Below, one piece after another: positions 3,986 through 30,787 of a stretch of DNA of 32,000 nt. Position numbers and translations under genes: made by a program. Under the pieces are notes generated by a model, which saw only the letters and a list, made by a program, of their open reading frames with translations, was not told where the DNA came from and searched no databases. The DNA is from an uncultured archaeon. GTDB lineage: Archaea > Micrarchaeota > Micrarchaeia > Micrarchaeales > CABMGC01. Position 1 is the stretch's first letter. Each line of letters opens with the position of its first letter. The stretch is from NCBI GenBank assembly GCA_963704435.1, contig OY969902.1, forward strand, positions 390,001 through 422,000, in the 5' to 3' direction.

Positions 3986-4432
3986 CTTACCACCCTAAAC
4001 TAATATCTCTATTGATAGTTAAGTCTTTGGACCTATTTATAGCTATCCCAAACGTTCCATAATGGTGGAATATGCCTGTGGAGACAATTCTTCTATTGAT
4101 GGAGTGTTCTATAGAGAATAATCCTAATTTGAAAGCAGCCAACGGAGCCACAGGGAAAACAAATAAATAGCAAAGTTTTTAAGAGGGCTTTTCTAATAGA
4201 GCTATGAAAGTAGTTTAAGGCAGGATGGAGGAGAATTTGGTAATAGAATGAAAATAAAAGTGGGAAAGGTCAATTCAAATAAGGGTAAGATAGTTTTCGT
4301 CGCATCAAATTTAGGTGGACAAGGCTGTCCGACTATCGCCGTCACTGCAAGTAATTGTGCGAAGTTTAGAGATGATTACTCAGGTAAGTTGAAAGTAAAG
4401 AAGTCAATTGCAAACGTGTTATTTGGGTAAAG

Positions 4433-5836
4433 TCATTCGTTTTTCTCGGCAAACTTTGAACCTCGGATATCTCCAAGATACTCTTCTTTTTGTCGCTCCT
4501 TACCTGTTTTCTCATAATTCTTTCTCGCCATTTTCGATTTTTTGTAATCCTCTTCCAAAATTTTCTGTTGCATTGAGTAAGCATTATCAAAATGCCTGTA
4601 GCAGAATCTTCCAACAATCACATTTGTGGTAGTTAGTTTTGATAATCTTATTCCAAGATTAAGACTCATTAATTTGTCGGTATGACTATCTAAACTATCT
4701 GAATCGATAACAGGAACGCAAAATAAAAAGCCATCTGGACTCGCTAAATCGTAACTGGCGGCAAATTTGTTCGTATGTATATTGTCAGGTTCATCAACAA
4801 CTTCAGTCAGCAGTTTAATTTTATTTATTCCAAAAAGGCGGCGGTTAACCATGTTAACCATAATCACTCCCACATATTTGACAGGTAAGTTCTGCATCGT
4901 CATAGTTATTCTTCGAATTTTTCCTTCGTTTCTCAGCTTGTGGTATGAGTACTGCGCTCTTCCCCGGTCAAACGAGTGCCGCTTGTCTATCTCCACGAAC
5001 TCGATTGAGCCATCCGTATTGAGCTCTTCTAGCACGGCAGATTCCCTTTCGAGAAGCTCTCCTTTCTCTTTGAGTAGCCCTATGAACTCGTTCCTAACTG
5101 GAATGAAACCATAGACCTCGTTAAGTGAAACCGTGCTCCAGACCGACTCGAATTCTGAGAGGGCAGTTCTCGCGAATATGACTGCGGCTATCGCCTCGGC
5201 ATTGGTCCTCGCAAGCAAGTACACAATCAAGTCGAAATCTCCTGTGGTAAGTGCAGCCAACTGAATCCTCGGTTCTTTCTCCAAGATTTCTTTGAGTCTA
5301 TCGGAGGAAGGCACGCTTTCAGAGAATTTCACGGTAATCAGGAAAGGCATATAGCCGAACTTTCCTACGTCTATCTCGGGCAGGTATCTGATTCCATACC
5401 TTTTCTCCAGGCTGGCGACCTGCCACGCTGTCGCGTTGACGCTGAGTCCCACCATTTCACTGAGGACAGGGAGGGATATGCGGCCATTCATGCTCAGCGC
5501 GGTCAATAGGGTGTTCTCGTATTTTTTGGAGCTCTCGCGCATCCTTGGCTCTTCAGCGTGCAGTTCAGCCTGAGCGGAGAGCGCTGCTTGCCTGCCGTTC
5601 GGCTCGGCCGCAACTCCAAGCGCCTGCCTGCTGCGCTTATGCCTGCGCACGGCTGTGAACATCCCTTCCTCCGATATCTTGCCCTTGTATATGCTCACCT
5701 TCCTCGATCTCCTTGCCTCAGCATCCCATTTGCTGAAGGAGATATAGACGTAGTGGCGCCCTTTTATGCTCTTCAGCTCGTAGCTGCTGTTCTGCCATTT
5801 GAGCTTAGCAAACGCCTTGGATACCCTATCTTCCAT
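4433..5836 (-). CDS. Tandem Lrp/AsnC-type (HTH + RAM) transcription regulator with an N-terminal extension
   Basis: 467 aa. Module 1: ...LLTALSMNGRISLPVLSEMVGLSVNATAWQVASLEKRYGIRYLPEID..., then the RAM-like FLITVKF...TTGDFDLIVYLLARTNAE. A second, degenerate HTH+RAM-like module follows (ESAVLEELNTDGSIEF...KLRNEGKIRRIT...VGVIMVNM). The N-terminus has ...GRHYVYISFSKWDAEARRSRKVSIYKGKI, and the C-terminal tail is Lys/Glu-rich. Confidence 0.65.
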   Translation of the reverse strand: MEDRVSKAFAKLKWQNSSYELKSIKGRHYVYISFSKWDAEARRSRKVSIYKGKISEEGMFTAVRRHKRSRQALGVAAEPNGRQAALSAQAELHAEEPRMRESSKKYENTLLTALSMNGRISLPVLSEMVGLSVNATAWQVASLEKRYGIRYLPEIDVGKFGYMPFLITVKFSESVPSSDRLKEILEKEPRIQLAALTTGDFDLIVYLLARTNAEAIAAVIFARTALSEFESVWSTVSLNEVYGFIPVRNEFIGLLKEKGELLERESAVLEELNTDGSIEFVEIDKRHSFDRGRAQYSYHKLRNEGKIRRITMTMQNLPVKYVGVIMVNMVNRRLFGINKIKLLTEVVDEPDNIHTNKFAASYDLASPDGFLFCVPVIDSDSLDSHTDKLMSLNLGIRLSKLTTTNVIVGRFCYRHFDNAYSMQQKILEEDYKKSKMARKNYEKTGKERQKEEYLGDIRGSKFAEKNE

Positions 5837-6729: not shown

Positions 6730-8757
6730 CTATTGCTGTCCATATGAGAGGGAAGGAGTGGGGGTTCCCGTCTTCTTCTTTGGCATTCGCCTGAACGCGA
6801 CATATACGATGACCACCGCTGCAATCGCGAAGGCCGCGATATTCGTCGGGGATATGAAGAACACCGTTACGGCCTTCCCGTACCCGACTGTCACGGGGCT
6901 GCTCATCCCAAAATAGCTGGCCGTGCCGTTTGCCGCTCCGTAGGGCGCGTCCGCCAGCTGCACCGTGCCGCTAGCGCCTGAAAAAGTCCTGCTAGAGCTG
7001 AGGTTCCCATAGGTAAGGGATACCGTCGCATTCACAGGAATAAGGAACAGGTCCACGGTCCTTATGGAGATGTTGTATATGGGCAGCGCGACGGAGACAT
7101 TGGATGGCGCTGCCGCCGAGATGCTGACGTTCACCGGGAGCAGGACCCCCTTGTAGTAGGCGCCTTCCACTGAATGGGTCTGGTTGGCGTTGAGGAAGAA
7201 GGTGCCGTTCTCCAGTTTGCCGTCGACAATGAAGTATGACACGGGAATCTGGTTACCATAGGCGTCGGTTCCTGCCAAGCCAATTCTGTACTGCGTGTCG
7301 AAGATCGCGTGCAGGCTTAGCGGACCTGACACCGCCTCCCTGAACGTGCTGTTGGCGTTTCCGTTGCTCCAGGATGCGAAGGCCTCCCTCTCGCTCGCGC
7401 TTATGTTTACTATCGGCCTGCTCACTCCGATGTCCGCGACGGTTCCGTTGGCGTACCATCCGCTCCCGGTTGCGTTCGGGTACGGCGAAGTGGCGTTTAC
7501 CAGGTATTCATGCAGCCAGAGGGCATTCAGGCTTACCGGACCCGAGACCAAGAAGTTGCCGCTGAGGTTCCTGTTGCCGTTGCTCCAAGAGCTGAACGCG
7601 TATCTCGCCGTCGCGTTCTCATAGACCATCGATGTGTTGAGCCTGTAGCTCGCTAACGACGCGTTGTTGTACCACCCCGTCCCCGTGACCTGCGAGAAAG
7701 GCGAGGAGACGTTCACGAACTGCTGCAGTCGCCAGTTCGCGGTCTCCGTTATGTTGCCGACGAGCATTACCGAGACGTTGTTCTTGGTCCCCGTATACGA
7801 TCCCACTCCGGAGCCCGACCAGCCGGTGAACACCGCACGGGTCGTATTTCCGACGTAAGAAATCCCCGGCGCGGTCAGGTTGACTGTGGAGTATGCCGCA
7901 TAGCCCACCCTGCTGCTCAGGTTGCCGTATCTCGACAGCACGCTGGCCGTGTAGCCCAGGCTCCACAACTGCGCGCTTTCCGTATTAGGCAGCCCGGATC
8001 CGACCGCGAAATAGTTGGTCCTGCTTCCTATCTCCTGGACTCCATAGGGGTTCGGCACGCTGGTTGCGCTGCCCACCCCATAGCTCACATCTCCGAATCC
8101 TGTGGCCACTGGAAGGAACGATCCGTGCGCGTATGATGAGAGGTTCGAGAAAATCACCCGGTTCATGTTCACCTGCGCCCTGCCGGTCGCGTTCGCAAGC
8201 TCGGCCAGCGCGACGGGGGAGAAGGGCCCCGATGACGACTCCCCTATGCTTACGCTTCCGAGCGTCTTCCCGTCCATGAGGAAATACCATACGTTGCCCA
8301 CAGAATAGAAGGAATACGTGTTGAGCGTACCGTTGACTCCTGCTGACCCGTCAGGGCCTATCTGGCCGGTGAAAGTGTTGTTCTTCCCCGGAAGGAAGTA
8401 CTCGTAGAACCACTCCGCGTCGCCCTTCCTCAGGTATTCGTCACCAGAGCAGCCTGAGACCGTGCAGTTAGCGGCGTACTGCCCGGTGTCGTTCTCGATG
8501 ACATAGCCCACCTGCAGGAAGGCGCTGTTCGCGAAGTTCTCGCCGACCCAGAAAGCCATCGAGCCGCTTGAGAGGGACTGCGTCGTTATGGTCTGTATCG
8601 TCACGCTCGCCCCGTTGTTGTACGCAGCGCCGCTCCCCGCCCTTACCCCGCTCTGGAACCAGTACTGCGCATTGGCAGCCGCCAGCAGCAGCGCTAGGGA
8701 CAGCAGAAGGGAAGCCAAGGGCAGCCTACAGTTTCTCATAATCCAAACCGATCTCAT
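6730..8757 (-). CDS. Cell-surface glycoprotein: signal peptide, eqolisin(G1)-like N-domain, three InlB-B-repeat-like units, C-terminal TM anchor
   Basis: 675 aa. Signal peptide LLLSLALLLAAANA/QYW. About 30 N-x-S/T sequons by my count. Three repeats carry the F-x-(G/S)-W-S-(G/N)-G signature (AVFTGWSGSG, YAFSSWSNGN, EAFASWSNGN). The C-terminus has IAAFAIAAVVIVYVAF followed by RRMPKKK. Confidence 0.75.
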   Translation of the reverse strand: MRSVWIMRNCRLPLASLLLSLALLLAAANAQYWFQSGVRAGSGAAYNNGASVTIQTITTQSLSSGSMAFWVGENFANSAFLQVGYVIENDTGQYAANCTVSGCSGDEYLRKGDAEWFYEYFLPGKNNTFTGQIGPDGSAGVNGTLNTYSFYSVGNVWYFLMDGKTLGSVSIGESSSGPFSPVALAELANATGRAQVNMNRVIFSNLSSYAHGSFLPVATGFGDVSYGVGSATSVPNPYGVQEIGSRTNYFAVGSGLPNTESAQLWSLGYTASVLSRYGNLSSRVGYAAYSTVNLTAPGISYVGNTTRAVFTGWSGSGVGSYTGTKNNVSVMLVGNITETANWRLQQFVNVSSPFSQVTGTGWYNNASLASYRLNTSMVYENATARYAFSSWSNGNRNLSGNFLVSGPVSLNALWLHEYLVNATSPYPNATGSGWYANGTVADIGVSRPIVNISASEREAFASWSNGNANSTFREAVSGPLSLHAIFDTQYRIGLAGTDAYGNQIPVSYFIVDGKLENGTFFLNANQTHSVEGAYYKGVLLPVNVSISAAAPSNVSVALPIYNISIRTVDLFLIPVNATVSLTYGNLSSSRTFSGASGTVQLADAPYGAANGTASYFGMSSPVTVGYGKAVTVFFISPTNIAAFAIAAVVIVYVAFRRMPKKKTGTPTPSLSYGQQ

Positions 8758-20532: not shown

Positions 20533-20828
20533 TGCTGAATTATGTGCTGCTGGCTTCTGTGGCCACCATAGGAGTGGCCTTGGCGGGGATAATCTCGAGC
20601 AGGCACTTCGCCGTGCTCATGCTCGCCGTGGAGCTAATCCTGATGTCTAGCTCCGTCCTCCTGCTTTCATACTTCTCGCTGTCCCCTGTGGCGGGAATCG
20701 ATGCCTTCCCCATGCTGGTCGGGATCTGGTCTGTAGTGGCCGTGGAGGCCATCGCGCTAACGGCATTCCACGTTTACATGAGGTCGCGCGGCATGGGCCT
20801 TGACCTTTCAAAGCTTCCGCGACAATAG
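20532..20828 (+). CDS. nuoK: NADH:quinone oxidoreductase subunit K
   Basis: 98 aa, 3 TM helices, with a membrane Glu in LAVELILMS. ATG overlaps the nuoJ stop (ATGA-type coupling). Confidence 0.85.
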   Translation: MLNYVLLASVATIGVALAGIISSRHFAVLMLAVELILMSSSVLLLSYFSLSPVAGIDAFPMLVGIWSVVAVEAIALTAFHVYMRSRGMGLDLSKLPRQ

Positions 20829-20835
20829 TGATGCC

Positions 20836-21711
20836 ATGCTAGGACCCATGATACTTCTGCTGCCCCCTCTCGCCGCGCTTGCGGCGATAGCGCTAAGCAG
20901 GAACCGGTGGATTGCCAAGTATGCTGCATTGGCGGGATGCCTAGCCGGCCTGCTTCTGCTACCGTTCGTAGACCGCGGCACTGAAAGCGCCGCGTGGTTC
21001 AGCGGCGGGGGCGCGACCTTCGTAATCACGACCTTGATGGGCCCCCTTAACGTGCTGCTCGCTGCGGCCGTTCTCGTGGTAGGCATCCTGGCCTCGTTAT
21101 ACTCGTTCCGGTTCGCGGACCTGCCTAGCGAGAAGCGGCGGTTCTGCATCGGGATGCTTGCGATCGAGACATCGGTACTCGCCATCACCATGGCAGGCAA
21201 TTTCATGCTCCTGCTGATCGCATGGGGATTCCTAGGCGCCTCCGGCTACCTGCTCAGGGGATTCCGCGGCGGGGCGAGGGCCAGCGCCGCCGCCAGGAGA
21301 TTCCTGACGCTGGTTTTGGTAGGGGATGTCGCGCTGATCGCTTCGACAGCCATATTATTCACCACGTACGGCAGTCTCGAATTCAATATCATACTCGGAT
21401 CCCTCCGGGCTACTCCGATTCCCCGCTCCGCGGCGGCGCTTCTGGCGCTGGCAGCCTTAACATGGCCCGCGGACCTCATCCTAACTGTGGATGCCCTCAG
21501 CCCGACGTTTGCGTTCTTCTCTAGGTTCATAGAGATCCTTGGAGACGGCTTCGCCTACTTCGACGAGTCCTTGGACAACGCGCTGTATCTGCTGGGACGC
21601 GCTCTGTCACGGCTGGGCAGGACGAAGAGAGCGGGCGCCGGGATTAACGCTTACGTCCTACTGTTCGCGGTAGGCATCCTACTGCTGCTCGTTGCAATGG
21701 TGTTCATTTGA
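20836..21711 (+). CDS. nuoL: Truncated NuoL-like subunit (NuoL N-terminal module plus C-terminal anchor; antiporter core absent)
   Basis: 291 aa from ATG 20836. LSRNRW, IAWGFLGASGYLLRGF and VLVGDVAL are colinear with E. coli NuoL LAFSRGRW, LGWEGVGLCSYLLIGF and TRVGDVFL (recalled). The C-terminus GFAYFDESLDNALY...INAYVLLFAVGILLLLVAMVFI resembles NuoL's last helices. There is no Proton_antipo_M core block. Confidence 0.7.
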   Translation: MLGPMILLLPPLAALAAIALSRNRWIAKYAALAGCLAGLLLLPFVDRGTESAAWFSGGGATFVITTLMGPLNVLLAAAVLVVGILASLYSFRFADLPSEKRRFCIGMLAIETSVLAITMAGNFMLLLIAWGFLGASGYLLRGFRGGARASAAARRFLTLVLVGDVALIASTAILFTTYGSLEFNIILGSLRATPIPRSAAALLALAALTWPADLILTVDALSPTFAFFSRFIEILGDGFAYFDESLDNALYLLGRALSRLGRTKRAGAGINAYVLLFAVGILLLLVAMVFI

Positions 21712-23087
21712 TGATATCACTGGCTCTAGGCTTCGCGGTGGTGCTCGCGCTCTACCTGCTGGTGAACATGTCAGCAAGCCTTGTGCGCGCCAAGAAGTTC
21801 CAATTCGCCTGCAACGCTATCCTCCTGGCACTGCTCTGCGTAGGCGCACTTGCGCTGTCCGGAGTTACGGCGACTTACCTGAGCATGATATCGGTGAATC
21901 CCTTCTCGGCGATGTTCGCCCTCGCCTTCACGCTCACGGTCTTCCTCGCCAACTTCCTGGCTTACGTCGCGCCGCAGGGCTATTCTGACTTCGCGCTGTT
22001 GGGCTCCTTCGCCCTGGCGGGATCGTACCTGATCGCGTTCGCGAGCTCGCTCGTAGCGATATTCCTTGGCCTGGAGGCGGTGGCGGTGCCCGCCGCGTTC
22101 ATCTTGTTGATCTCAAGGAGGCAGAGCGCCGGAGCAGCCGCTAAGTTCTTCATCATTTCTTCGCTGTCGGTCGCTGTGCTCTCGTTTGCCGCGGTGCTCG
22201 TCTACGGATCTTCAGGAACTCTCGCCCTTGCCGTCCACCCGCAGAGCCCTGTCCTCGCATTGGCAGCAGCCCTATTCATCGCATCCTTAGGATTCGGAGC
22301 GCTCATCTTCCCGTTCAACGCCTCCCTGGCGGGAATCTATCACGGCGCATCCGCGCAAGCAATCTCAATCGCGGGAGTTCTGCAGAACAAAGTAGGATTC
22401 GCGGCCATGATGCTCGTATTCGTCCTTGTCTTCCAGTCTTACGGGCTCGCGTTCCAGGCCATTGCAGTGCTCGCAGCGCTCACCATGCTCGCGGGCAGCG
22501 TCCTGGCGAACGGCCAGAACAGCCTGAAGAGGCTGCTCGCCTACGCGTCGTTCGCGCAGGCGGGGTTCGTGCTCGTCGGGATCGCGACGAACAGCGCAGC
22601 GGGGCTAGGCGCCAGCTCGGTGCAGATATTCGCAGACGTCTTCTCCTTCATGGGAATCCTCGGGATAATCGCATGGCTGGAGCGGCACGACAGGAGCCGC
22701 GTGGACGACCTGGTGGGGCTCTACAAGGAGAACAGGTTCGTGGCCGTGGCGCTCTGCATATTCCTGCTCTCGCTGCTGGGGATTCCGTTCACGGTGGGCT
22801 TCGTAGGAAAATTCCTGATCCTCCTCGAGGCGACAAAATCGGGACTGCTGTGGCTGGCTGCAGTGGGCGTGATTGAAATCGCAATCTCGGTATTCTACTG
22901 CGCGCGCGCGATGACCGCGATGTATGCGGGAAGGGCCGGAGCGAAGAGAGTGCGCCTCGATCGCGCGACTGCCTGTGTCGTCGTAATATGCCTGTTGCTT
23001 ACGCTTGCATTTGGAATCTATCCGCAGCCGATGATCAGCATCGCGAACAGCGGCGCGGGCTATCTTTTCAGCCTGGCCGCGCACTGA
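21711..23087 (+). CDS. nuoN: NADH:quinone oxidoreductase subunit N (with substitutions at conserved TM7 positions)
   Basis: FLGLEAVAVP (TM5 Glu), KRLLAYASFAQAGFVL, GIPFTVGFVGKF, IYPQPMISI. ATG 21711 overlaps the mini-nuoL TGA (TGATG). The track lists a TTG at 21708. Confidence 0.85.
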   Translation: MISLALGFAVVLALYLLVNMSASLVRAKKFQFACNAILLALLCVGALALSGVTATYLSMISVNPFSAMFALAFTLTVFLANFLAYVAPQGYSDFALLGSFALAGSYLIAFASSLVAIFLGLEAVAVPAAFILLISRRQSAGAAAKFFIISSLSVAVLSFAAVLVYGSSGTLALAVHPQSPVLALAAALFIASLGFGALIFPFNASLAGIYHGASAQAISIAGVLQNKVGFAAMMLVFVLVFQSYGLAFQAIAVLAALTMLAGSVLANGQNSLKRLLAYASFAQAGFVLVGIATNSAAGLGASSVQIFADVFSFMGILGIIAWLERHDRSRVDDLVGLYKENRFVAVALCIFLLSLLGIPFTVGFVGKFLILLEATKSGLLWLAAVGVIEIAISVFYCARAMTAMYAGRAGAKRVRLDRATACVVVICLLLTLAFGIYPQPMISIANSGAGYLFSLAAH

Positions 23088-23089
23088 CA

Positions 23090-25804
23090 TCAGCGCTTTC
23101 CGTACCTGCTGAGGAAGGCCATGTACCTTCCCATGACGCTGGATGGCGCAGAAGGCTTCGCCTTGGCCAGGATCTTTGTCACGTCGCTCATCTCAACCAT
23201 GGCCTCCCCTCCCTTCGAGAGGCTCGTCTGGAGCGCGTTGATCTTCACCTGCCGGCAGATGTTCGCGATGTCCGCGCCGGTGAACCCCTCAGTCATGTCC
23301 GCAAGCTTTCCGAAGTCAAGGTCATCCGAGACGGGCACTTTCTTCAGGTTCTGCTCGAACAACTTCTCCCTGTCGTCCCTCTGAGGGGCCGGGACGAAGA
23401 TCAGCTTGTCGAACCTTCCCGGCCTGAGCAGCGCCGCGTCCAGTACATCCGGCCGGTTCGTGGACGCCACGACCACTATCCCGGTGGCGTCCTTTATCTT
23501 GTCGAACTCCTCCAGGATCTCGCCCGTGAGCATCGCTCCGGTATATGCGGTGGTGTCTCTCGCTGGGACCAGCGCATCGATCTCGTCGATGAACACTATT
23601 GCCGGAGGGTGCTCCTTCGCCCTGTCGAATATCTCCCTTATCGACGCTACGACGGCATCGGGCCCGCGCCTTGTCACGTCATATCCGGACAGGGTAAGCA
23701 CGCGCACGTCAGGCAGCTTGTTCGCGGTCGCGTTTATTAGCATCGTCTTGCCGGTTCCGGGCGGGCCGAAGAGCAGTATGCCCCTCACCCCTCCGACGCC
23801 GTACTTCTTTATGAGCTCCGGATGTATTATCGGGAGCTCGATCGCCTCCTCGAGGGCCTTCTTCGCCTCGTCCAGCCCGACGACGTCGCCAAGGCTCACC
23901 TTCTCTCCCTTCTCCGCCTGCATCTCCGGATTGAGCCGCCTCTCGTAGTCCAGCTTGAATGTGTTGAACGCCTCGAGCTGCGACAGCGAGGTCGATGGGT
24001 TGACCGCCTTTATCACTGCGAGTATGTCCTGCAGCCTTATGATGAGCATCGCGTGCTTTGCTATCGCCTGCTCTCCCACCTGCCTCGCGACCTCGTCGCA
24101 GACGTTCTTTATGTCCGCGCCCGAGAACCTGAGCGTGATTCCGGCCAGCTTGTCGTAGTCCATGTCCTTGTCAATCGGGAGCTTCGAGAGGTAGTACTTG
24201 AATATCTCCGCCCTCCCCACCTGGTCCGGCAGCGGCATGTAGAGTATCTTGTCGAACCTGCCCGGCCTGAGCAGCGCAGGGTCGAGCAGCTGGGGCGCGT
24301 TGGTCGCGCCGACGATGACCACCTTCGATATCTTCTGGAAGCCGTCCATCTCGCTGAGCATGGCCGTGAGCAGCTCCCTTATCGCCTCGTTCCTCTGCAC
24401 CTCCCTGCGTCCGCCGATGCTGTCCAGCTCGTCGAAGAATAGGACGCACGGCGCGTTCTTCTTGGCCGTTGAGAAGATCTTCACGAGGGCCTGCGCGCTC
24501 GAGCCCGGAATCGCCGAGAGCAGCGAGGCCGCGTTCACGTAGTAGAAGCTCGCCCTCAGCTCGTTGGCCAGCGCCCGCATTATGAGCGTCTTGCCCGTTC
24601 CGGGCGGGCCGAAGAGCAGTATGCCCTTCGCCGGGCTCACGCCGTACGCGCCGGATATCTCCCTGTGCTCTATCGGGGCCATCACGGCGTTCCTGAGCTC
24701 CTTCTTCGTCTCCGCGTAGTCAGCGACGTCGTCAAAGGTCTCTCCGCTGCCCTTGGTCAGGTCCTCGAAGGCGACTCCGAACTTGCCGAGTATATCCTGC
24801 TTCATCACGTCGAGCGCCATGACCACGTCTATTCCGGCGGCCTCGAGCGAGAAAAGGAAGACGGGCGTTATGAGGAAGCCGACGATTATCAGTGGGTTGA
24901 AGCCCAGCCCCTCGATCCTGGAGAACAGGAAGTAGGACGCCAGCAGGACTATCCCGAAGAAGGACGAGAAAGATCCCTTGTAGGGCGACCTGCTCTTTAT
25001 CGCGTAGTTGCTTATCGTGAAGACCACGAGAAGCCATATGCAGATCTGGATCAGCGTGAACGGGAGGTCGTGCCATAAGCCGAGCAGCGCATAGTAGAAG
25101 ACATTATAGAGGTTGCCCATCGCCTCCGTGCTGAAGAGCGCGCCAAGAGAGCCGGTCCACGAGCTGATCAGGTTGCCGAAAACCGCTGCGTGCTTCGTAG
25201 GGGTGAGGTATTTCGCAAGGGAGGTGGCTGCTACCGTCTTGTTCATGAACGTGGAGTTGTAGACTATCGGCCCGGACAGGGCAATTCCGGTAAGCCCTGA
25301 TACCATTACCGATAACACGATGACCACCAAGGAGAGTATCGCGCCGCGCTTGAATCCCAGGACCAGTATCGAAATGATGAATCCCGGAATGACGAGCAGA
25401 TAGCCGAGGTACGACAGCGACAGGAAGACCAGGGCGAACGTGAAGGCTATCGTCCGGTAGTACTTGTAGCCCAGTATGAGCGATATGCTTATGATAATCG
25501 TGAAGAGCCACACCAGCAGCGGAGACTGATAGATGAGCATGGGCAGCACTGAGAGCAGCATCGTCATCAGGCCGAGCAGCGGGTGTATCAGCGCGAGGAC
25601 GAAAATCAGCAGGATGACCGGAGCGAGGAGGTAGACGGGCAGGAACGGGAACGCGATCGCCATGCTGGCCAGCGCCAGCGACATTATCAGCGCATCCTGG
25701 AAGTTCTTGTTGCTGACGAGCTGCCTGATGACGTCCTTCATCCAGTAGACGGAGAGCGGTGCGATCCCGCGCTTTACGGTTTCAACTTTTTTCTTGTCCT
25801 TCAA
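23090..25804 (-). CDS. Membrane-embedded tandem AAA+ ATPase (Cdc48/VAT-like D1-D2 preceded by a polytopic membrane domain of about 340 aa)
   Basis: 904 aa. Residues 30-340 form about 10 hydrophobic helices. Two full AAA modules follow: GPPGTGKT / VLFFDELDS / GATNAP..PALLRPGRFD, and GPPGTGKT / IVFIDEIDA / ASTNRPDVLDAALLRPGRFD. No double-psi-barrel N-domain sequence is recognisable. Confidence 0.85.
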   Translation of the reverse strand: MKDKKKVETVKRGIAPLSVYWMKDVIRQLVSNKNFQDALIMSLALASMAIAFPFLPVYLLAPVILLIFVLALIHPLLGLMTMLLSVLPMLIYQSPLLVWLFTIIISISLILGYKYYRTIAFTFALVFLSLSYLGYLLVIPGFIISILVLGFKRGAILSLVVIVLSVMVSGLTGIALSGPIVYNSTFMNKTVAATSLAKYLTPTKHAAVFGNLISSWTGSLGALFSTEAMGNLYNVFYYALLGLWHDLPFTLIQICIWLLVVFTISNYAIKSRSPYKGSFSSFFGIVLLASYFLFSRIEGLGFNPLIIVGFLITPVFLFSLEAAGIDVVMALDVMKQDILGKFGVAFEDLTKGSGETFDDVADYAETKKELRNAVMAPIEHREISGAYGVSPAKGILLFGPPGTGKTLIMRALANELRASFYYVNAASLLSAIPGSSAQALVKIFSTAKKNAPCVLFFDELDSIGGRREVQRNEAIRELLTAMLSEMDGFQKISKVVIVGATNAPQLLDPALLRPGRFDKILYMPLPDQVGRAEIFKYYLSKLPIDKDMDYDKLAGITLRFSGADIKNVCDEVARQVGEQAIAKHAMLIIRLQDILAVIKAVNPSTSLSQLEAFNTFKLDYERRLNPEMQAEKGEKVSLGDVVGLDEAKKALEEAIELPIIHPELIKKYGVGGVRGILLFGPPGTGKTMLINATANKLPDVRVLTLSGYDVTRRGPDAVVASIREIFDRAKEHPPAIVFIDEIDALVPARDTTAYTGAMLTGEILEEFDKIKDATGIVVVASTNRPDVLDAALLRPGRFDKLIFVPAPQRDDREKLFEQNLKKVPVSDDLDFGKLADMTEGFTGADIANICRQVKINALQTSLSKGGEAMVEMSDVTKILAKAKPSAPSSVMGRYMAFLSRYGKR

Positions 25805-25915
25805 GCGATGTCACCGAGCGCAGCTTGGGTCGCCTCCTGACGCCTAAACATGATAAACTCTGCATATCTATATTAATATTCTCTAATTTCATAATAGCAA
25901 CCCGCGGGATAGCGC

Positions 25916-26014
25916 CCCGCTGTAGCTCAATGGCAGAGCGACCGGCTGTAGTTTGTCACTTCTTCACGGCAAGAAGATACCGGTAGGTTGGGTGTTCAAA
26001 TCACCCCAGCGGGA
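25916..26014 (+). tRNA. tRNA-Tyr (anticodon GTA) with a 27-nt intron
   Basis: Hand-folded. Acceptor CCCGCTG/CAGCGGG (C1:G72, A73, the archaeal Tyr identity set). D arm GCTC-AATGGCA-GAGC. Anticodon stem ACCGG/CCGGT. Variable loop AGGTT. T arm GGGTG-TTCAAAT-CACCC. CCA is not encoded. TATA-like TATATTAATATT at about 25870-25880. Confidence 0.85.
25952..25978 (+). other. tRNA-Tyr intron at the canonical 37/38 position
   Basis: 34 nt lie between the anticodon-stem strands. Removing 25952-25978 leaves the loop CTGTAGA. The intron contains a CTTCTT/AAGAAG hairpin. I could not fit a strict bulge-helix-bulge (BHB) motif by hand. Confidence 0.7.
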
Positions 26015-26034: not shown

Positions 26035-26289
26035 TTGGACTACGTTGCGATAATAGGCACAGCCGCAGGGGCGCTGACCACGTTCTCGTACCTTCCGGAA
26101 CTGGTTGACGTGCTGAAGACGAGAGTGACTAAGGACCTGTCAGAGGTTTGGCTGATCTCAGTCAGCACAGGCTTCGTCCTTTGGACGTACTATGGCTACT
26201 GCATTAATTCATGGCCCCTCGTTCTGTTCAGCGCGCTGTCGCTGGCCTTCGCGATGGCGCTCCTGGCGCTGAAATTAAGGTATAAGTAG
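26035..26289 (+). CDS. SemiSWEET (PQ-loop, 3-TM) transporter unit, divergent copy 1
   Basis: 84 aa, 3 TM helices, TTG start 20 nt after tRNA-Tyr. About 40% identical by eye to copy 2. It has LPE in place of the PQ motif and S in place of the pocket Asn (LFSA versus VWNA). Confidence 0.65.
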   Translation: MDYVAIIGTAAGALTTFSYLPELVDVLKTRVTKDLSEVWLISVSTGFVLWTYYGYCINSWPLVLFSALSLAFAMALLALKLRYK

Positions 26290-26320: not shown

Positions 26321-26393
26321 GCCTTGGTGGTGTAGTGGACTAGCATACGACCCTGTCACGGTTGTGACCCGGGTTCGAATCCCGGCCAAGGCG
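26321..26393 (+). tRNA. tRNA-Asp (anticodon GTC)
   Basis: Hand-folded. Acceptor GCCTTGG/CCAAGGC. TGGTGTAGTGGACTAGCATACGACCCTGTCACGGTTGTGAC matches the typical archaeal tRNA-Asp body. T arm CCGGG-TTCGAAT-CCCGG. Discriminator G. Confidence 0.9.
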
Positions 26394-26443
26394 CTTTGGA
26401 ACTGCGACAAGGATCGTATCCTAAAATTAAAAGTTGATTGATT

Positions 26444-26701
26444 ATGCCATATGCCGAAATCCTGGGCCTGATCGCAGGCTTCTTCACGACGGTTGCATAT
26501 GTGCCGCAGGCAATAAAGGCATTCAAGACAAAGTCCACGAAGGATCTCTCAATACTGTGGCTCTCGATTGCGGGGTTTGGAGCCACATTGTGGATCTTTT
26601 ACGGATTCTCGATAGGCTCCATCCCCATAATAGTATGGAATGCTGGAGGAGACGTCCTGATTGCGATACTTATAATATTGAAGTCAAAATACAACCGATA
26701 A
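26444..26701 (+). CDS. SemiSWEET (PQ-loop, 3-TM) transporter unit, canonical copy 2
   Basis: 85 aa from ATG 26444 (the track lists a TTG at 26438). FTTVAYVPQAIKAFKTKSTKDLS contains the PQ motif, and LWIFYGF...VWNAGG contains the Trp/Asn pocket residues. Confidence 0.75.
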   Translation: MPYAEILGLIAGFFTTVAYVPQAIKAFKTKSTKDLSILWLSIAGFGATLWIFYGFSIGSIPIIVWNAGGDVLIAILIILKSKYNR

Positions 26702-27508: not shown

Positions 27509-28024
27509 ATGCAAGGCAACTACGAACGTCCCAAGACGAGCAGCGATAGGCAGTCGCTCATGGTCAGCGAGATAATGAGCAGCCCCGTAATAACCGCGAC
27601 GGAGAGGACGAGCATCAGGGACATAGCGAAGATGATGAGCAAGCACAGGATAGACGCCGTGGTCATAGCCAACAAGCAGAACGAGCCCGTAGGGATGGTC
27701 ACCGGAGGCGACATAGTAAAGAAGCTCGTATCGAGAAAGAGGAACCTGCTATTCTCCAAGGCGAAGCACATAATGAGCAAGCCTGTCGTAACCGTCGCGA
27801 GGCCGGTGAAGCTGGAGGACGCTGCCAGGAGAATGGTCGAGAGGAAGGTGAAGAAGCTGTGCGTCGTCGACGAGGGCAACAAGGTGATAGGGATCGTCAC
27901 GTCCTCGGACATAACGAAGAACGCGAGCCACCTGATAGACGTGCTGGAGGAGATAATAGGCACGGGCTACGTGCTTGCGGACGAGGCGGCGGAAGCCGCT
28001 GCGCAGGGCAGCCTAGAGGCCTAG
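27509..28024 (+). CDS. CBS-domain pair protein
   Basis: Two CBS motifs: IMSSPVITA...IDAVVIANKQNEPVGMVTGGDIVKK and IMSKPVVTV...VKKLCVVDEGNKVIGIVTSSDITK. The start is ATG 27509 or 27560. The 3' end overlaps the convergent nuoM by 12 nt. Confidence 0.8.
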   Translation: MQGNYERPKTSSDRQSLMVSEIMSSPVITATERTSIRDIAKMMSKHRIDAVVIANKQNEPVGMVTGGDIVKKLVSRKRNLLFSKAKHIMSKPVVTVARPVKLEDAARRMVERKVKKLCVVDEGNKVIGIVTSSDITKNASHLIDVLEEIIGTGYVLADEAAEAAAQGSLEA

Positions 28025-29428
28025 GGGCGCGAGTAGCAGGCCCGGAAGGATTCCCAGGACGACCGTGGCGCATATGAGGATTCCCGCGGCAGCGTACACT
28101 CCCTTCTTCGGGCTCTCGAAGGGCTCGGTGAAGCCCGTGACGGGCATGAACGATTTCTCTATCACGAAGAACAGGAACGCCCCCGCGAGCGCGACGGAAA
28201 CCAGCGGGGCTATGCCCGCTATGCCGTACGCCTCGAACGCCCCAGAGGCACTGAGGAAGTAGCCGATGAACCCGCTCGTGAGGGGAAGCCCGATGAAGGC
28301 GAACGTGCAGAAGATGAAAGAGTATGCGAGGTAGGGCATGCTGTTCATGATACCCTTTACCTTTCCGAAAAGTAGCGTTCCATAGGATTCGTCCACTGCG
28401 CCGGAGACCAGGAACAGCATCGAGGATACGATTCCCTGGCCGAGCAGCAGGTATAGCCCTCCGGCAGTTCCGATCTGGTTAAGCGATACGAGGCCTATCG
28501 CGGCTATTCCCGACCCGACCATGCCGATGTATGCGGCAATCCTTTTCAGGTCCGACTGCCGGATTGCGACAAGCGACGCGTAAATCGCCGAGAAGCCGAA
28601 GAGCACAGCAAGGTACTTCGCATATACTGATACGACGGGCAACATCAGAATCAGGAGGAGCAGGCCGTAGGCCCCGGACTTGAAAAGCATTCCGGATTGA
28701 AGCATGCCTGCAGTCGCGGGCGACTCCGCCTGCGCGCTCTCCAGCCAGGAATGGAAGGGGAACACGGGCATCTTTATTATGAACGCTAGTAGGAGGAGGA
28801 GCATTGCGAGGAACTGCGCACCTTGCGGGATGGAAGCGGACTGGCTTATGATTGAGGCGATGTCGAACGTGTGGGTCGGAACGTTCGCGTAGATGACCAT
28901 TATCCCGAGGAGGAGGGCAAGGCTCGCCACCGTGGAGTATATCAGGAACTTTATGGCGGCGTACCGCCTCTCCTGGCCCCCAAACACGTGTATCATGAAG
29001 AACATCGCGACGTCGCACAGCTCCCAGAATGCGAAGAACAGGAACAGGCTGCCCGACAGGAAGATTCCAAGCGCTGAAGCTTCCGTGAGGAGGAAGAGCA
29101 CGCCGTAAATCCTGTGCGACTCCTTCACGAAGGAGCCGGCGCAGACGGACGCCGACAGGAGGACTACCGCAGACAGCACCAGGAATATCCCGCTATATCC
29201 TGTGAGTTGGAAGTTCACGTTTATTCCGAGGGAAGGAAGATACGCGTAACTGAAAGAGAGAGCGACTAAGCCGCTGTTTGCACTAACATAAAATACGTAC
29301 AGCGTCAGTAGGAAGACTATCGCGGAAGAAAGCGTCGCAATCTTTAGCGAGTGGCGCTCTCCGGCAAGAAGTACAGGTATGATGAACGCCACGGGAATGA
29401 GGACAAGGAGTGGCAACAGGGGAAACAC
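28013..29428 (-). CDS. nuoM: NADH:quinone oxidoreductase subunit M, located away from the nuo cluster
   Basis: FFAFWELCDVAMFFMIHVFGG, IKMPVFPFHSWLESAQAESPATAGMLQSGMLFKSGAYGLL and LKRIAAYIGMV align with NuoM (FFFFWEMMLVPMYFLI; KMPVVPLHGWLPDAHSQAPTAG...LLKTAAYG). The track ORF start at 29887 is an artefactual extension antisense to cdc6. The start is GTG 29428 (VFPLLPLL...) or GTG 29446. Confidence 0.85.
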   Translation of the reverse strand: MFPLLPLLVLIPVAFIIPVLLAGERHSLKIATLSSAIVFLLTLYVFYVSANSGLVALSFSYAYLPSLGINVNFQLTGYSGIFLVLSAVVLLSASVCAGSFVKESHRIYGVLFLLTEASALGIFLSGSLFLFFAFWELCDVAMFFMIHVFGGQERRYAAIKFLIYSTVASLALLLGIMVIYANVPTHTFDIASIISQSASIPQGAQFLAMLLLLLAFIIKMPVFPFHSWLESAQAESPATAGMLQSGMLFKSGAYGLLLLILMLPVVSVYAKYLAVLFGFSAIYASLVAIRQSDLKRIAAYIGMVGSGIAAIGLVSLNQIGTAGGLYLLLGQGIVSSMLFLVSGAVDESYGTLLFGKVKGIMNSMPYLAYSFIFCTFAFIGLPLTSGFIGYFLSASGAFEAYGIAGIAPLVSVALAGAFLFFVIEKSFMPVTGFTEPFESPKKGVYAAAGILICATVVLGILPGLLLAPLGL

Positions 29429-29476
29429 AGCATCACCGCCGCGCACGCCGCAGCAGATAGTGAAACTGAATTCAGG

Positions 29477-29484
29477 TTTATATA
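29477..29484. promoter_or_regulatory. TTTATATA element in the nuoM / cdc6 divergent intergenic region
   Basis: Consensus-like archaeal TATA, quasi-symmetric, 31-56 nt upstream of the candidate nuoM GTG starts. A second A+T-rich block (TTAATAAGAATAATT, 29521-29535) lies about 30 nt upstream of the cdc6 ATG at 29561. Confidence 0.4.
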
Positions 29485-29560
29485 CGTTAATGTGAGCCGT
29501 GGGAGGAGCCACAGAAGAGTTTAATAAGAATAATTGCAAAACAGCTATAAGGGGCAGAGA

Positions 29561-30787
29561 ATGGACCAGAGATTCGCAGATTTGTTCAAGGAGTCCAAGA
29601 TATTCGCCAACCGGGAGGTGCTGTCCCCTCACTACATGCCCGACGTGCTGCCCTTCAGGGACAAGCAGATAAATGACATAGTGAAGTCGCTCACCCCGTC
29701 GCTTAGGGGCGAGAGGGGAAGGAACATATTCATCTACGGCAAGACTGGGACCGGGAAGACCTCGTGCATGAAGCACGTGATAAACGAGGTCAGGAGCCTG
29801 CCTGTCGTGAAGGTGAGGATATCCTACGTCAACTGCAGGATATACAACTCCAGGTACCGGGTGCTCAGCAAGATAGCCAGCGACCACCTTCCGCTCTACG
29901 CCAAGCGCGGCTACGGAGTCGTCGAGATCTACGAGAAGATAATCAACTGGATAGAGGAGGACGGGAAGGTCCTTCTGGTCATTCTCGACGAGATTGACAT
30001 AGTCAAGGACCTCGACGACCTGGTGTACACGCTGACCAGGGCGAACAGCGACCTAAGGTCTGGCGGGATAACTATCGTCGGCATATCGAACAAGACGAAC
30101 TTCAAGGAGCAGCTGGACCCCAGGAGCCTGTCCACCCTGTACGAGAACGAGCTGGTCTTCCCTCCTTACAATTCGAACGAGCTCGCGACGATACTGGAGG
30201 ACAGGGCCGCGAAGGGCTTCAGGCCAGGAGTAATAAGGCAGGAGACGCTGAGGCTCGCGGCCGCGATAGCCGCAAAGGAGAGCGGCGACGCAAGGCTCGC
30301 CCTGAAGATAATATCCAAGGCGGGCGAGCTCGCGGAGGAGCACGGGCTCACCGGGATAAACGCGAAGGAGGTACAGGCGGCCGCGCAGGACGCCGAGGAG
30401 GAGATAGCCTACGAGGTAATATCCACGCTGCCCGAGCACCAGAAGCTGGTGCTCTACGCCATCGCCCTGCTCGAGCTGCAGGGCAGCAGGTACAAGAAGC
30501 TCGTGGACGGGGACGACTCGCTGATGTTCAGCGGCGAGGTGTACGCCAGGTACGCCAAGCTGTCCGAATCGCTGAAGAGGGACGCGAAGAGCAACAGGTG
30601 GTACAGGAAGTACATAACCGACCTGGAGATGCAGGGGCTCATAGTGACCTACCAGTCCGGCAAGGGTGTGAGGGGCCACACCAAGCTCGTGAAGCTGTCC
30701 TACCCCGCCAACAAGATAAAGGACACGATAGAGAAGAGCATATTCATGGAAAGCGAGGCCAAGGGAGACGCCAGCGTCGTTGCTTGA
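29561..30787 (+). CDS. cdc6: Orc1/Cdc6 replication initiator
   Basis: FANREVLSPHYMPDVLPFRDKQI, Walker A IYGKTGTGKTS, Walker B LVILDEID, sensor VGISN, and a C-terminal winged helix (...GVRGHTKLVKL). ATG 29561 is preferred over the track's TTG at 29534. Confidence 0.9.
   Translation: MDQRFADLFKESKIFANREVLSPHYMPDVLPFRDKQINDIVKSLTPSLRGERGRNIFIYGKTGTGKTSCMKHVINEVRSLPVVKVRISYVNCRIYNSRYRVLSKIASDHLPLYAKRGYGVVEIYEKIINWIEEDGKVLLVILDEIDIVKDLDDLVYTLTRANSDLRSGGITIVGISNKTNFKEQLDPRSLSTLYENELVFPPYNSNELATILEDRAAKGFRPGVIRQETLRLAAAIAAKESGDARLALKIISKAGELAEEHGLTGINAKEVQAAAQDAEEEIAYEVISTLPEHQKLVLYAIALLELQGSRYKKLVDGDDSLMFSGEVYARYAKLSESLKRDAKSNRWYRKYITDLEMQGLIVTYQSGKGVRGHTKLVKLSYPANKIKDTIEKSIFMESEAKGDASVVA

Follow-up and report, generated by a model that had tools for sequence, protein, structure and literature searches.

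The window analysed here is a stretch of 32,000 nucleotides (nt) from an uncultured archaeon of the Micrarchaeales (GenBank assembly GCA_963704435.1, contig OY969902.1, positions 390,001 to 422,000), and all positions below count from its first letter. On the reverse strand it carries a gene for an AAA+ ATPase in which a polytopic membrane domain is followed by the double ring of a Cdc48/VAT-type motor. The gene begins with a TTG codon at 25802-25804 and ends with a TGA stop at 23090-23092. Its parts are laid out as follows, where aa stands for amino acids, TM for transmembrane, and D1 and D2 for the first and second AAA modules.

23090-25804, reverse strand: complete, uninterrupted open reading frame (ORF) of 904 aa for a membrane-integrated, Cdc48/VAT-like double-ring AAA+ ATPase
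25811-25815, reverse strand: Shine-Dalgarno-like motif GGTGA, 6 nt 5' of the TTG, read from the sequence
25703-25804, reverse strand: predicted cytoplasmic N-terminal segment, aa 1-34, a basic tail and helix 17-30
24839-25702, reverse strand: orphan polytopic membrane domain, aa 35-322, about ten TM helices
25067-25288, reverse strand: predicted extracytoplasmic loop between TM7 and TM8, aa 173-246, with short helices and the sequons N183-S-T and N188-K-T
24746-24838, reverse strand: juxtamembrane helix, aa 330-341 (V-M-K-Q-D), and linker, aa 338-352, leading from TM10 to D1
23945-24745, reverse strand: D1 AAA module with its lid, about aa 354-620
24503-24517, reverse strand: D1 pore loop-1, S430-A-I-P-G434, with Ile432 at the aromatic paddle position
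23195-23902, reverse strand: D2 AAA module with its lid, about aa 635-870
23657-23671, reverse strand: D2 pore loop-1, R712-R-G-P-D716, aligned to K-W-V-G-E of VAT D2
23093-23155, reverse strand: conserved C-terminal tail, aa 884-904, PSAP...GRYxxFLSxYGKR, with helix 888-901; not an HbYX motif

The TTG start is sound, because GGTGA lies 6 nt upstream (the sequence directly before the TTG reads ...CTCGGTGACATCGC) and the family-conserved P16 and Y20 of the motif P16-L-S-x-Y20 precede the first internal ATG, at residue 22. A start at this ATG was rejected on the same grounds. In the Micrarchaeales-type clade a PLSxYWxKD motif is conserved in helix 17-30.

The same fusion is found in 252 full-length homologues that are 33-70% identical and come nearly all from Micrarchaeota metagenome-assembled genomes (MAGs); together with the protein of the window (the query) they form the 253 members to which the family counts below refer. 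A search from the query yielded at least 120 full-length homologues (890-970 aa), at 48-70% identity over 98-100% of the query, with sources named as Micrarchaeota, Micrarchaeia or ‘Marsarchaeota’ MAGs. A search from a distant member added at least 120 further proteins of similar length, assigned to Candidatus Anstonella stagnisolia, Anstonellales, Burarchaeum and Bilamarchaeaceae, with one Parvarchaeota and one Iainarchaeum label among them. In species-representative genomes the membrane domain is encoded at 74 loci, all in Micrarchaeota-type MAGs. The query aligns end to end with the 252 homologues and possesses all the motifs that we propose for the family, namely Y-Q-x-P-x3-W, G150, Q-x3-W, E321, the D1-D2 tandem and a tail of the YG[KQE]R type; the junction between membrane domain and motor, V-M-K-Q-D-x-L-G-K-F-G, is likewise conserved across the family. 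The membrane nature of these proteins is invisible in databases, because they are annotated only as ‘AAA family ATPase’, ‘VCP-like ATPase’, ‘SpoVK/Ycf46/Vps4 family’ or ‘transitional endoplasmic reticulum ATPase’, and none of these names mentions the membrane domain. In the literature searched, neither a polytopic or membrane-integrated archaeal Cdc48 fusion nor relevant AAA proteins of DPANN archaea or Micrarchaeota are described. Six groups of archaeal AAA proteins have been distinguished, Vps4, MBA, Mm0854, AMA, PAN and CDC48 (PMC3493965), and prokaryotes generally have a single type of Cdc48 (PMC5070193).

To which lineage does the motor belong? Pfam recognizes two PF00004 modules with AAA_lid_3 and no domain in the first 350 residues. 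The best relatives in the PDB are Cdc48, p97 and VAT, with E values of about 1e-113 (p97/Cdc48) to 1e-104 (VAT), and residues 347-866 of the query align in a single colinear stretch with residues 174-690 of VAT (5g4g; E 3e-104). The best NCBIfam model, TIGR01243 (CDC48), scores 439.7 bits, below its cutoff of 802.65, and its alignment covers profile positions 167-726 only. Since the alignment starts at profile position 167 and the score is below the cutoff, the N-domain must be missing; Pfam indeed finds no CDC48_N or CDC48_2 (double-psi barrel and beta-clam) in the protein, and the helical ten-TM domain stands in its place. The sequence-only reading, which had proposed a Cdc48/VAT-like double ring whose N-domain is replaced by a polytopic membrane domain, is thus borne out by the two PF00004 modules and the roughly ten TM helices of an AlphaFold2 model. 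It had also held that Walker A and B, sensor-1 and arginine-finger motifs are intact in both rings, and this too is the case. D1 has its Walker A at 399-406 (K405), Walker B at D458/E459, sensor-1 at N502 and arginine fingers at R513/R516; the corresponding positions of D2 are 680-687 (K686), D740/E741, N783 and R794/R797. All of these catalytic residues are invariant in the family, with the exception of R794, which is arginine in 251 of the 253 members. The conservation of these residues in D2 marks this ring as an active ATPase under selection. In a model of the full-length monomer the predicted local distance difference test score (pLDDT) is 80.1 and the predicted template-modelling score (pTM) is 0.42, with disordered linkers at 338-352 (pLDDT below 50) and 626-633; the low pTM is as expected for a model of a single ring protomer.

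The query departs from VAT in the pore loops of both rings. The KYYG (D1) and KWVG (D2) loops that the sequence-only reading gave for VAT are confirmed by alignment: the query D1 loop SAIPG aligns to SKYYG of VAT D1 and SKLAG of p97 D1, and its D2 loop RRGPD aligns to KWVGE of VAT D2 free of gaps. The statement that the paddles are missing in both rings therefore stands for the query, and for D2 it stands across the family, where no member has an aromatic-hydrophobic-glycine paddle and pore loop-1 takes the form [K/R]-x-G with variable flanks (KYG, KKGY, KNG). It does not stand for D1 of the family. The aromatic paddle position of D1 is occupied by Trp in 113 members, Tyr in 97 and Phe in 29, that is in 239 (94%), and by Ile or Leu in nine, while the glycine is kept in 251 of 253. 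Loops such as SEWYGE, SQWYGE and SKWVGE occur in distant orders, SPYPGE and SPFQGE in the Micrarchaeales-type clade, so that the ancestral D1 paddle is retained by nearly the whole family; about 11 members lack an aromatic residue at both D1 paddle positions, and the S-[A/G]-I-P-G-S loop is confined to six sequences, the query and five close relatives. One member, P0164, has an intein directly after the WYGE of its D1 pore loop. Inteins usually sit in the most constrained sites of their hosts, and this insertion therefore marks the loop as critical. Ile432 is a conservative substitution, because a hydrophobic side chain is kept at the paddle position, as with the Leu of KLAG in p97 D1; an Ile in place of Tyr or Trp suggests a weaker grip in the query lineage and not a changed mechanism. 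By its loop sequences D2 is probably not the main substrate-gripping ring. NSF and PEX1/PEX6 offer a precedent for double-ring motors with one non-gripping ring. Many further members have inteins in D1: the two long outliers among the membrane-domain matches (1080 and 1912 aa) are copies of the fusion whose D1 is interrupted by inteins, P0153 has two inteins, and about ten members of 1383-1418 aa from the distant-member search carry inteins in D1. Some of the inteins of the family have LAGLIDADG homing endonucleases.

The membrane domain is an orphan. By hydropathy, residues 37 to 334 contain 8-10 hydrophobic segments, and the AlphaFold2 model of residues 1-345, computed with 25 homologues (pLDDT 83.9, pTM 0.80), shows ten helices of membrane length and a loop of about 70 residues with short helices at 173-246. 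In the family alignment Lys and Arg number 7.2 per protein in the 35 residues of the predicted inside loops versus 2.3 in the 117 outside residues, and N-x-S/T sequons are about five-fold denser in the outside loop 173-246 than in the AAA part (1.2 versus 0.26 per 100 aa). A topology in which both termini are cytoplasmic is supported by its agreement with the positive-inside rule and the sequon distribution. Conservation within the domain peaks at a few residues: Q93 and G150 are found in 100% of members, W257 in 98%, Y92 in 95%, W99 in 94%, E321 in 92% and Q253 in 90%, and the family-wide motifs can be written as Y92-Q93-x-P95-x3-W99, G150, Q253-x3-W257 and E321. Y92, Q93, W99, Q253 and W257 (nt ~25508-25531 and ~25034-25048) map to those ends of TM3, TM4 and TM8 that are predicted to be extracytoplasmic. 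A profile of the domain matches 66 of 1.84 billion cluster representatives, practically all of them this fusion, either complete (about 900 aa) or in fragments; a few database entries have the membrane domain alone (330-365 aa, no other domain), and these may be fragments from contig ends. Homology to a known family was rejected after a Pfam scan of 25 members at E of 1 or less gave only scattered single chance matches for the domain, a profile search of the PDB reached no E below 2, and Foldseek against the PDB gave no fold match (best E 1.1, template-modelling score at most 0.17). The membrane domain is unique to this family of ten-TM Cdc48 fusions.

What might a Cdc48 motor do when it is built into the membrane? 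We propose, with a probability of roughly 0.5, that the protein is a type-II AAA+ translocase of archaeal Cdc48/VAT descent, self-anchored and presumably hexameric, that extracts membrane proteins to the cytosol. As to its assembly into a hexamer, the direction of threading, the substrates and the physiological role, we infer the following. The family-specific ten-TM domain would take the place of the soluble, substrate-recruiting N-domain. As D1 starts about 30 residues after TM10, its entry face has to sit right beneath the cytoplasmic membrane, where the staircase of D1 pore loops could catch a membrane protein by a tail or loop on the cytoplasmic side. Both rings would hydrolyse ATP and supply the force, and the polypeptide would be drawn from the bilayer through D1 and then D2 to the cytosol. 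In AAA motors of the classic clade the substrate passes from the N-terminal to the C-terminal face, as in FtsH, the 26S proteasome and Cdc48 (D1 to D2), and by this rule the direction here would be from membrane to cytosol. It would fall to the six membrane domains to recruit substrates, and they may also reduce the cost of extracting a TM helix. Degradation or refolding would be left to other factors, as the protein has no attached protease and no HbYX docking tail. Elsewhere such work is done by FtsH, by Msp1 or by Cdc48 in ERAD; here a single polypeptide would do it, in a phylum whose genomes are very small. No neighbouring gene is conserved across orders, which fits a self-contained machine.

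Several observations weigh against this model. The most conserved residues of the membrane domain lie on the outer side, away from D1, and a role as anchor or recruiter does not account for them. Both pore loops of the query are devoid of aromatic residues. The D2 pore loop-1 is degenerate throughout the family, which would make hand-over through D2 unusual. Finally, no protease or HbYX link indicates the fate of extracted substrates.

Like VAT of Thermoplasma (5g4g, 5vc7) and Cdc48/p97, the protein has tandem classic-clade D1 and D2 modules with complete catalytic motifs and a helix after D2, and the D1 paddle of the query is aliphatic as in p97 D1 (KLAG). Unlike them, it has ten TM helices instead of the double-psi-barrel and beta-clam N-domain, and it lacks the D2 paddle of VAT (KWVG) and p97 (MWFG). 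The HbYX motif consists of a hydrophobic residue, Tyr or Phe and any residue at the protein end, and direct docking to the 20S proteasome has been shown for archaeal Cdc48 (PMC3493965). The query ends in FLSRYGKR and other members in YGKR, GERK, YGQR and similar sequences; the HbYX tail is absent from the query, as already noted from its sequence, and from all 252 retrieved homologues, so that direct 20S docking, unlike in archaeal Cdc48, is not expected. The protein is thus a motor of the Cdc48/VAT lineage, yet one without N-domain, D2 paddle and HbYX tail that scores below the family cutoff.

Like FtsH, the family holds an AAA ring under the membrane by its own N-terminal TM helices, through a short linker and with the entry face towards the membrane, and extraction would likely be a shared activity. 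FtsH, however, has two TM helices, one AAA ring and an M41 zinc protease, whereas the query has about ten TM helices, two rings and no Peptidase_M41 domain; its AAA modules score 388 bits against NCBIfam FtsH_fam, below the cutoff of 600. The MBA proteins of Sulfolobales and Thermoplasmatales are likewise membrane-anchored archaeal AAA proteins of the classic clade. In the 2009 description two TM helices reportedly enclose a small extracytoplasmic domain in these proteins, next to only one AAA module, with neither a polytopic domain nor tandem rings, unlike the ten TM helices and two modules here, and the profile search of cluster representatives detected no sequence relationship between the membrane parts. 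Msp1/ATAD1 and Bcs1 are also self-anchored AAA rings that remove proteins from a membrane or move them across it; they differ in having a single TM anchor, a single ring and unrelated N-terminal regions, and they are eukaryotic or mitochondrial. In its working principle the family would resemble FtsH or Msp1, being a member of neither. With NSF and PEX1/PEX6 it shares the double ring of the Cdc48 family with one gripping ring, which would be D1 as in NSF. The D2 ring of NSF and the D1 ring of PEX1/6 have lost catalytic residues, whereas D2 of the query family keeps them, and NSF and PEX1/6 are soluble and recruited to membranes by partners, whereas the query family is membrane-integrated.

To our knowledge archaea are without FtsH, and how they clear and extract membrane proteins is poorly understood. 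Eukaryotic Cdc48 extracts membrane proteins with separate partners such as Hrd1, Derlins and UBX proteins. The family would represent a natural one-polypeptide solution, a Cdc48-type motor fixed in the membrane by a domain without known relatives. That it is conserved throughout an entire phylum of host-dependent archaea with reduced genomes speaks for an important role. Both the architecture and the phyletic pattern would come as a surprise to those who study AAA+ proteins or the cell biology of archaea. Nature also provides, within the family, a series of pore loops (Trp-Tyr, Tyr-Pro and Ile-Pro in D1, a degenerate loop in a catalytically intact D2) with which the division of labour in type-II rings could be studied.

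In a different proposal, six ten-TM domains would form a pore coaxial with the AAA rings and the whole would act as a motor-plus-channel translocon, importing external or host polypeptides or retrotranslocating secreted proteins. In its boldest form this would be a single-polypeptide, ATP-driven retrotranslocon that pulls polypeptides into the DPANN cytosol through a protein-conducting or lipid/protein-scavenging channel, with YQxPxxxW, QxxxW and the outside loop as its entry site. A membrane domain that amounts to about 60 TM helices per hexamer and is conserved far beyond the needs of an anchor, the outward placement predicted for its top-conserved motifs, and an outside loop of about 70 residues that is itself conserved, are all consistent with such a channel. 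The established N-to-C-face direction of classic AAA motors would point inward. The family appears to be confined largely to Micrarchaeota, which belong to DPANN, and an import machine would suit the host-dependent lifestyle of these archaea. A central channel nevertheless has no structural support, the model being a monomer; Foldseek against the PDB finds no similarity to a known protein-conducting channel, and the neighbourhoods hold no conserved surface or secretion genes. The proposal is purely inferential and we consider it unlikely; if true, a Cdc48 motor would here have given rise to a new class of machine for translocation across membranes.

The gene neighbourhood raises the question whether the extraction that we favour serves one particular complex. 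Two antiporter-like genes with the Proton_antipo_M domain flank the ATPase gene in the window.

21708-23087, forward strand: NuoN-like Proton_antipo_M gene, the last of the nuo operon, convergent with the ATPase gene
28013-29887, reverse strand: orphan Proton_antipo_M gene, 624 aa, upstream of the ATPase gene on the same strand

The convergence with nuoN and the spacing of only 2 nt between the stop codons, both remarked on from the sequence, are confirmed (TGA-CA-TCA). Neighbours were tested by tblastn over the 74 loci, of which 68, all Micrarchaeales-type, were informative. A gene of the NuoN/MrpD family stands at the 3' end of the ATPase gene in 51 of these 68. In 33 loci it is a convergent NuoN at the end of a nuo operon, in 16 an orphan antiporter-like paralogue directly downstream on the same strand at 0-250 bp, and in two loci both arrangements occur; the remaining 17 have neither. 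In 18 related loci an orthologue of the orphan paralogue follows directly after the ATPase gene and is read in the same direction. The adjacency is thus more than coincidence in the Micrarchaeales-type clade, and it is not family-wide.

From these data one could argue that the ATPase is an assembly or quality-control factor for the Nuo membrane arm, extracting or inserting antiporter-like subunits of the NuoL/M/N type in the manner of Bcs1 or the mitochondrial m-AAA proteases. Adjacency that persists through rearrangement, in a convergent and a co-directional form, suggests more than frozen synteny, and in the window the gene even sits between nuoN and the orphan paralogue. However, at three Anstonellales-type loci from distant orders the surrounding 7 kb are free of nuo and antiporter genes and hold unrelated neighbours, the linkage is absent from the 17 closer loci mentioned, and PQ-loop and CBS neighbours are as syntenic in the close clade as the antiporter genes, so that the linkage may be inherited gene order; moreover, the convergent orientation in most loci excludes co-transcription. 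A Nuo-specific function was downgraded because of the distant orders and now seems to us improbable. Because the distant-order loci are without nuo genes in that range and the PQ-loop and CBS genes are equally syntenic, we see in the linkage a clade-specific trait that may be historical and that hints, at most, at one substrate class of the proposed extraction machine. In about 12 loci a gene fills a gap of about 800 bp that separates NuoN from the ATPase gene; it was set aside as a partner, since by eye it looks RPA/SSB-like and it lies on the nuo strand.

The missing paddles of the query had led the sequence-only reading to consider a non-threading machine as an alternative. In such a machine the rings would drive changes of the membrane domain for remodelling or fusion, lipid handling or small-solute transport. 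The query does lack aromatic residues in both loops, the D2 loop is degenerate in every member, and the conserved polar and aromatic residues Q93, Q253, W99, W257 and E321 could form a ligand site. The family data do not support this alternative: a canonical D1 paddle in 94% of members (239 of 253), with invariant spacing and its glycine (251 of 253), is hard to explain without the gripping of a polypeptide, and the intein at the D1 pore loop points the same way. In addition, the membrane domain matches no transporter or enzyme family, and the change to Ile is a conservative one, with a parallel in p97 D1. We judge such a membrane-coupled ATPase to be quite improbable. That the fusion itself is an artefact, a membrane-protein gene and a Cdc48 gene without N-domain merged by misassembly or frameshift, can be dismissed almost completely, since the window holds one uninterrupted ORF and the junction, with its conserved helix motif V-M-K-Q-D-x-L-G-K-F-G, is shared by 252 independent full-length homologues from many assemblies and several orders; the N-terminal region is accordingly not a separate gene, as the sequence-only reading had allowed it might be.

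Some features of the surroundings deserve mention. The window is archaeal chromosome, with a nuo operon, Orc1/Cdc6, PriX and tRNA genes. The gap gene between the ATPase gene and NuoN encodes about 245-283 aa, lies in the stretch of about 0-800 bp after the ATPase stop and appears by eye to be RPA/SSB-like with two OB folds; it was seen at loci L024, L037, L039, L041, L043, L046, L054, L059, L060, L063 and L071. In the orphan Proton_antipo_M protein of 624 aa the Pfam domain starts at residue 278. Its orthologues in other Micrarchaeota have 467-471 aa and match from about residue 150 on, and the extra N-terminal region of about 150 aa is also present in the closest relatives, L004 and L055. A NuoL-like ORF at 20800-21711 (forward strand, 303 aa) aligns to residues 1-189 and 505-574 of its 586-aa orthologue at L001; it has an in-frame internal deletion of the core antiporter domain and no Proton_antipo_M match in Pfam. 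The complex-I-like membrane arm of the source organism may be degenerate.

An intron-containing tRNA gene lies at 25916-26014 (forward strand), about 110 nt upstream of the ATPase start and divergent from it. It scores 59.3 bits with Rfam, has an insertion of about 30 nt in the anticodon loop and was missed by ARAGORN, which reported only a tRNA-Asp at 26321-26394; its loop CUGUAG... suggests the anticodon GUA, making it a candidate tRNA-Tyr. Two small hydrophobic ORFs, both on the forward strand, flank the tRNA-Asp gene. The one at 26438-26701 (87 aa) is a half transporter of the PQ-loop/SemiSWEET type (PF04193), and the one at 26035-26289 (84 aa) is similar to it by eye and has no Pfam match at 1e-5. 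Many related loci have kept a PQ-loop gene on the upstream side of the ATPase gene. At the other end of the window, ORFs at 4433-5836 (467 aa) and 6730-8757 (675 aa), both on the reverse strand, have no Pfam match. The GC content falls to 0.37 at 4001-5000, compared with 0.47-0.63 elsewhere in the window, and this low-GC region at 4-5 kb may be foreign or fast-evolving DNA.

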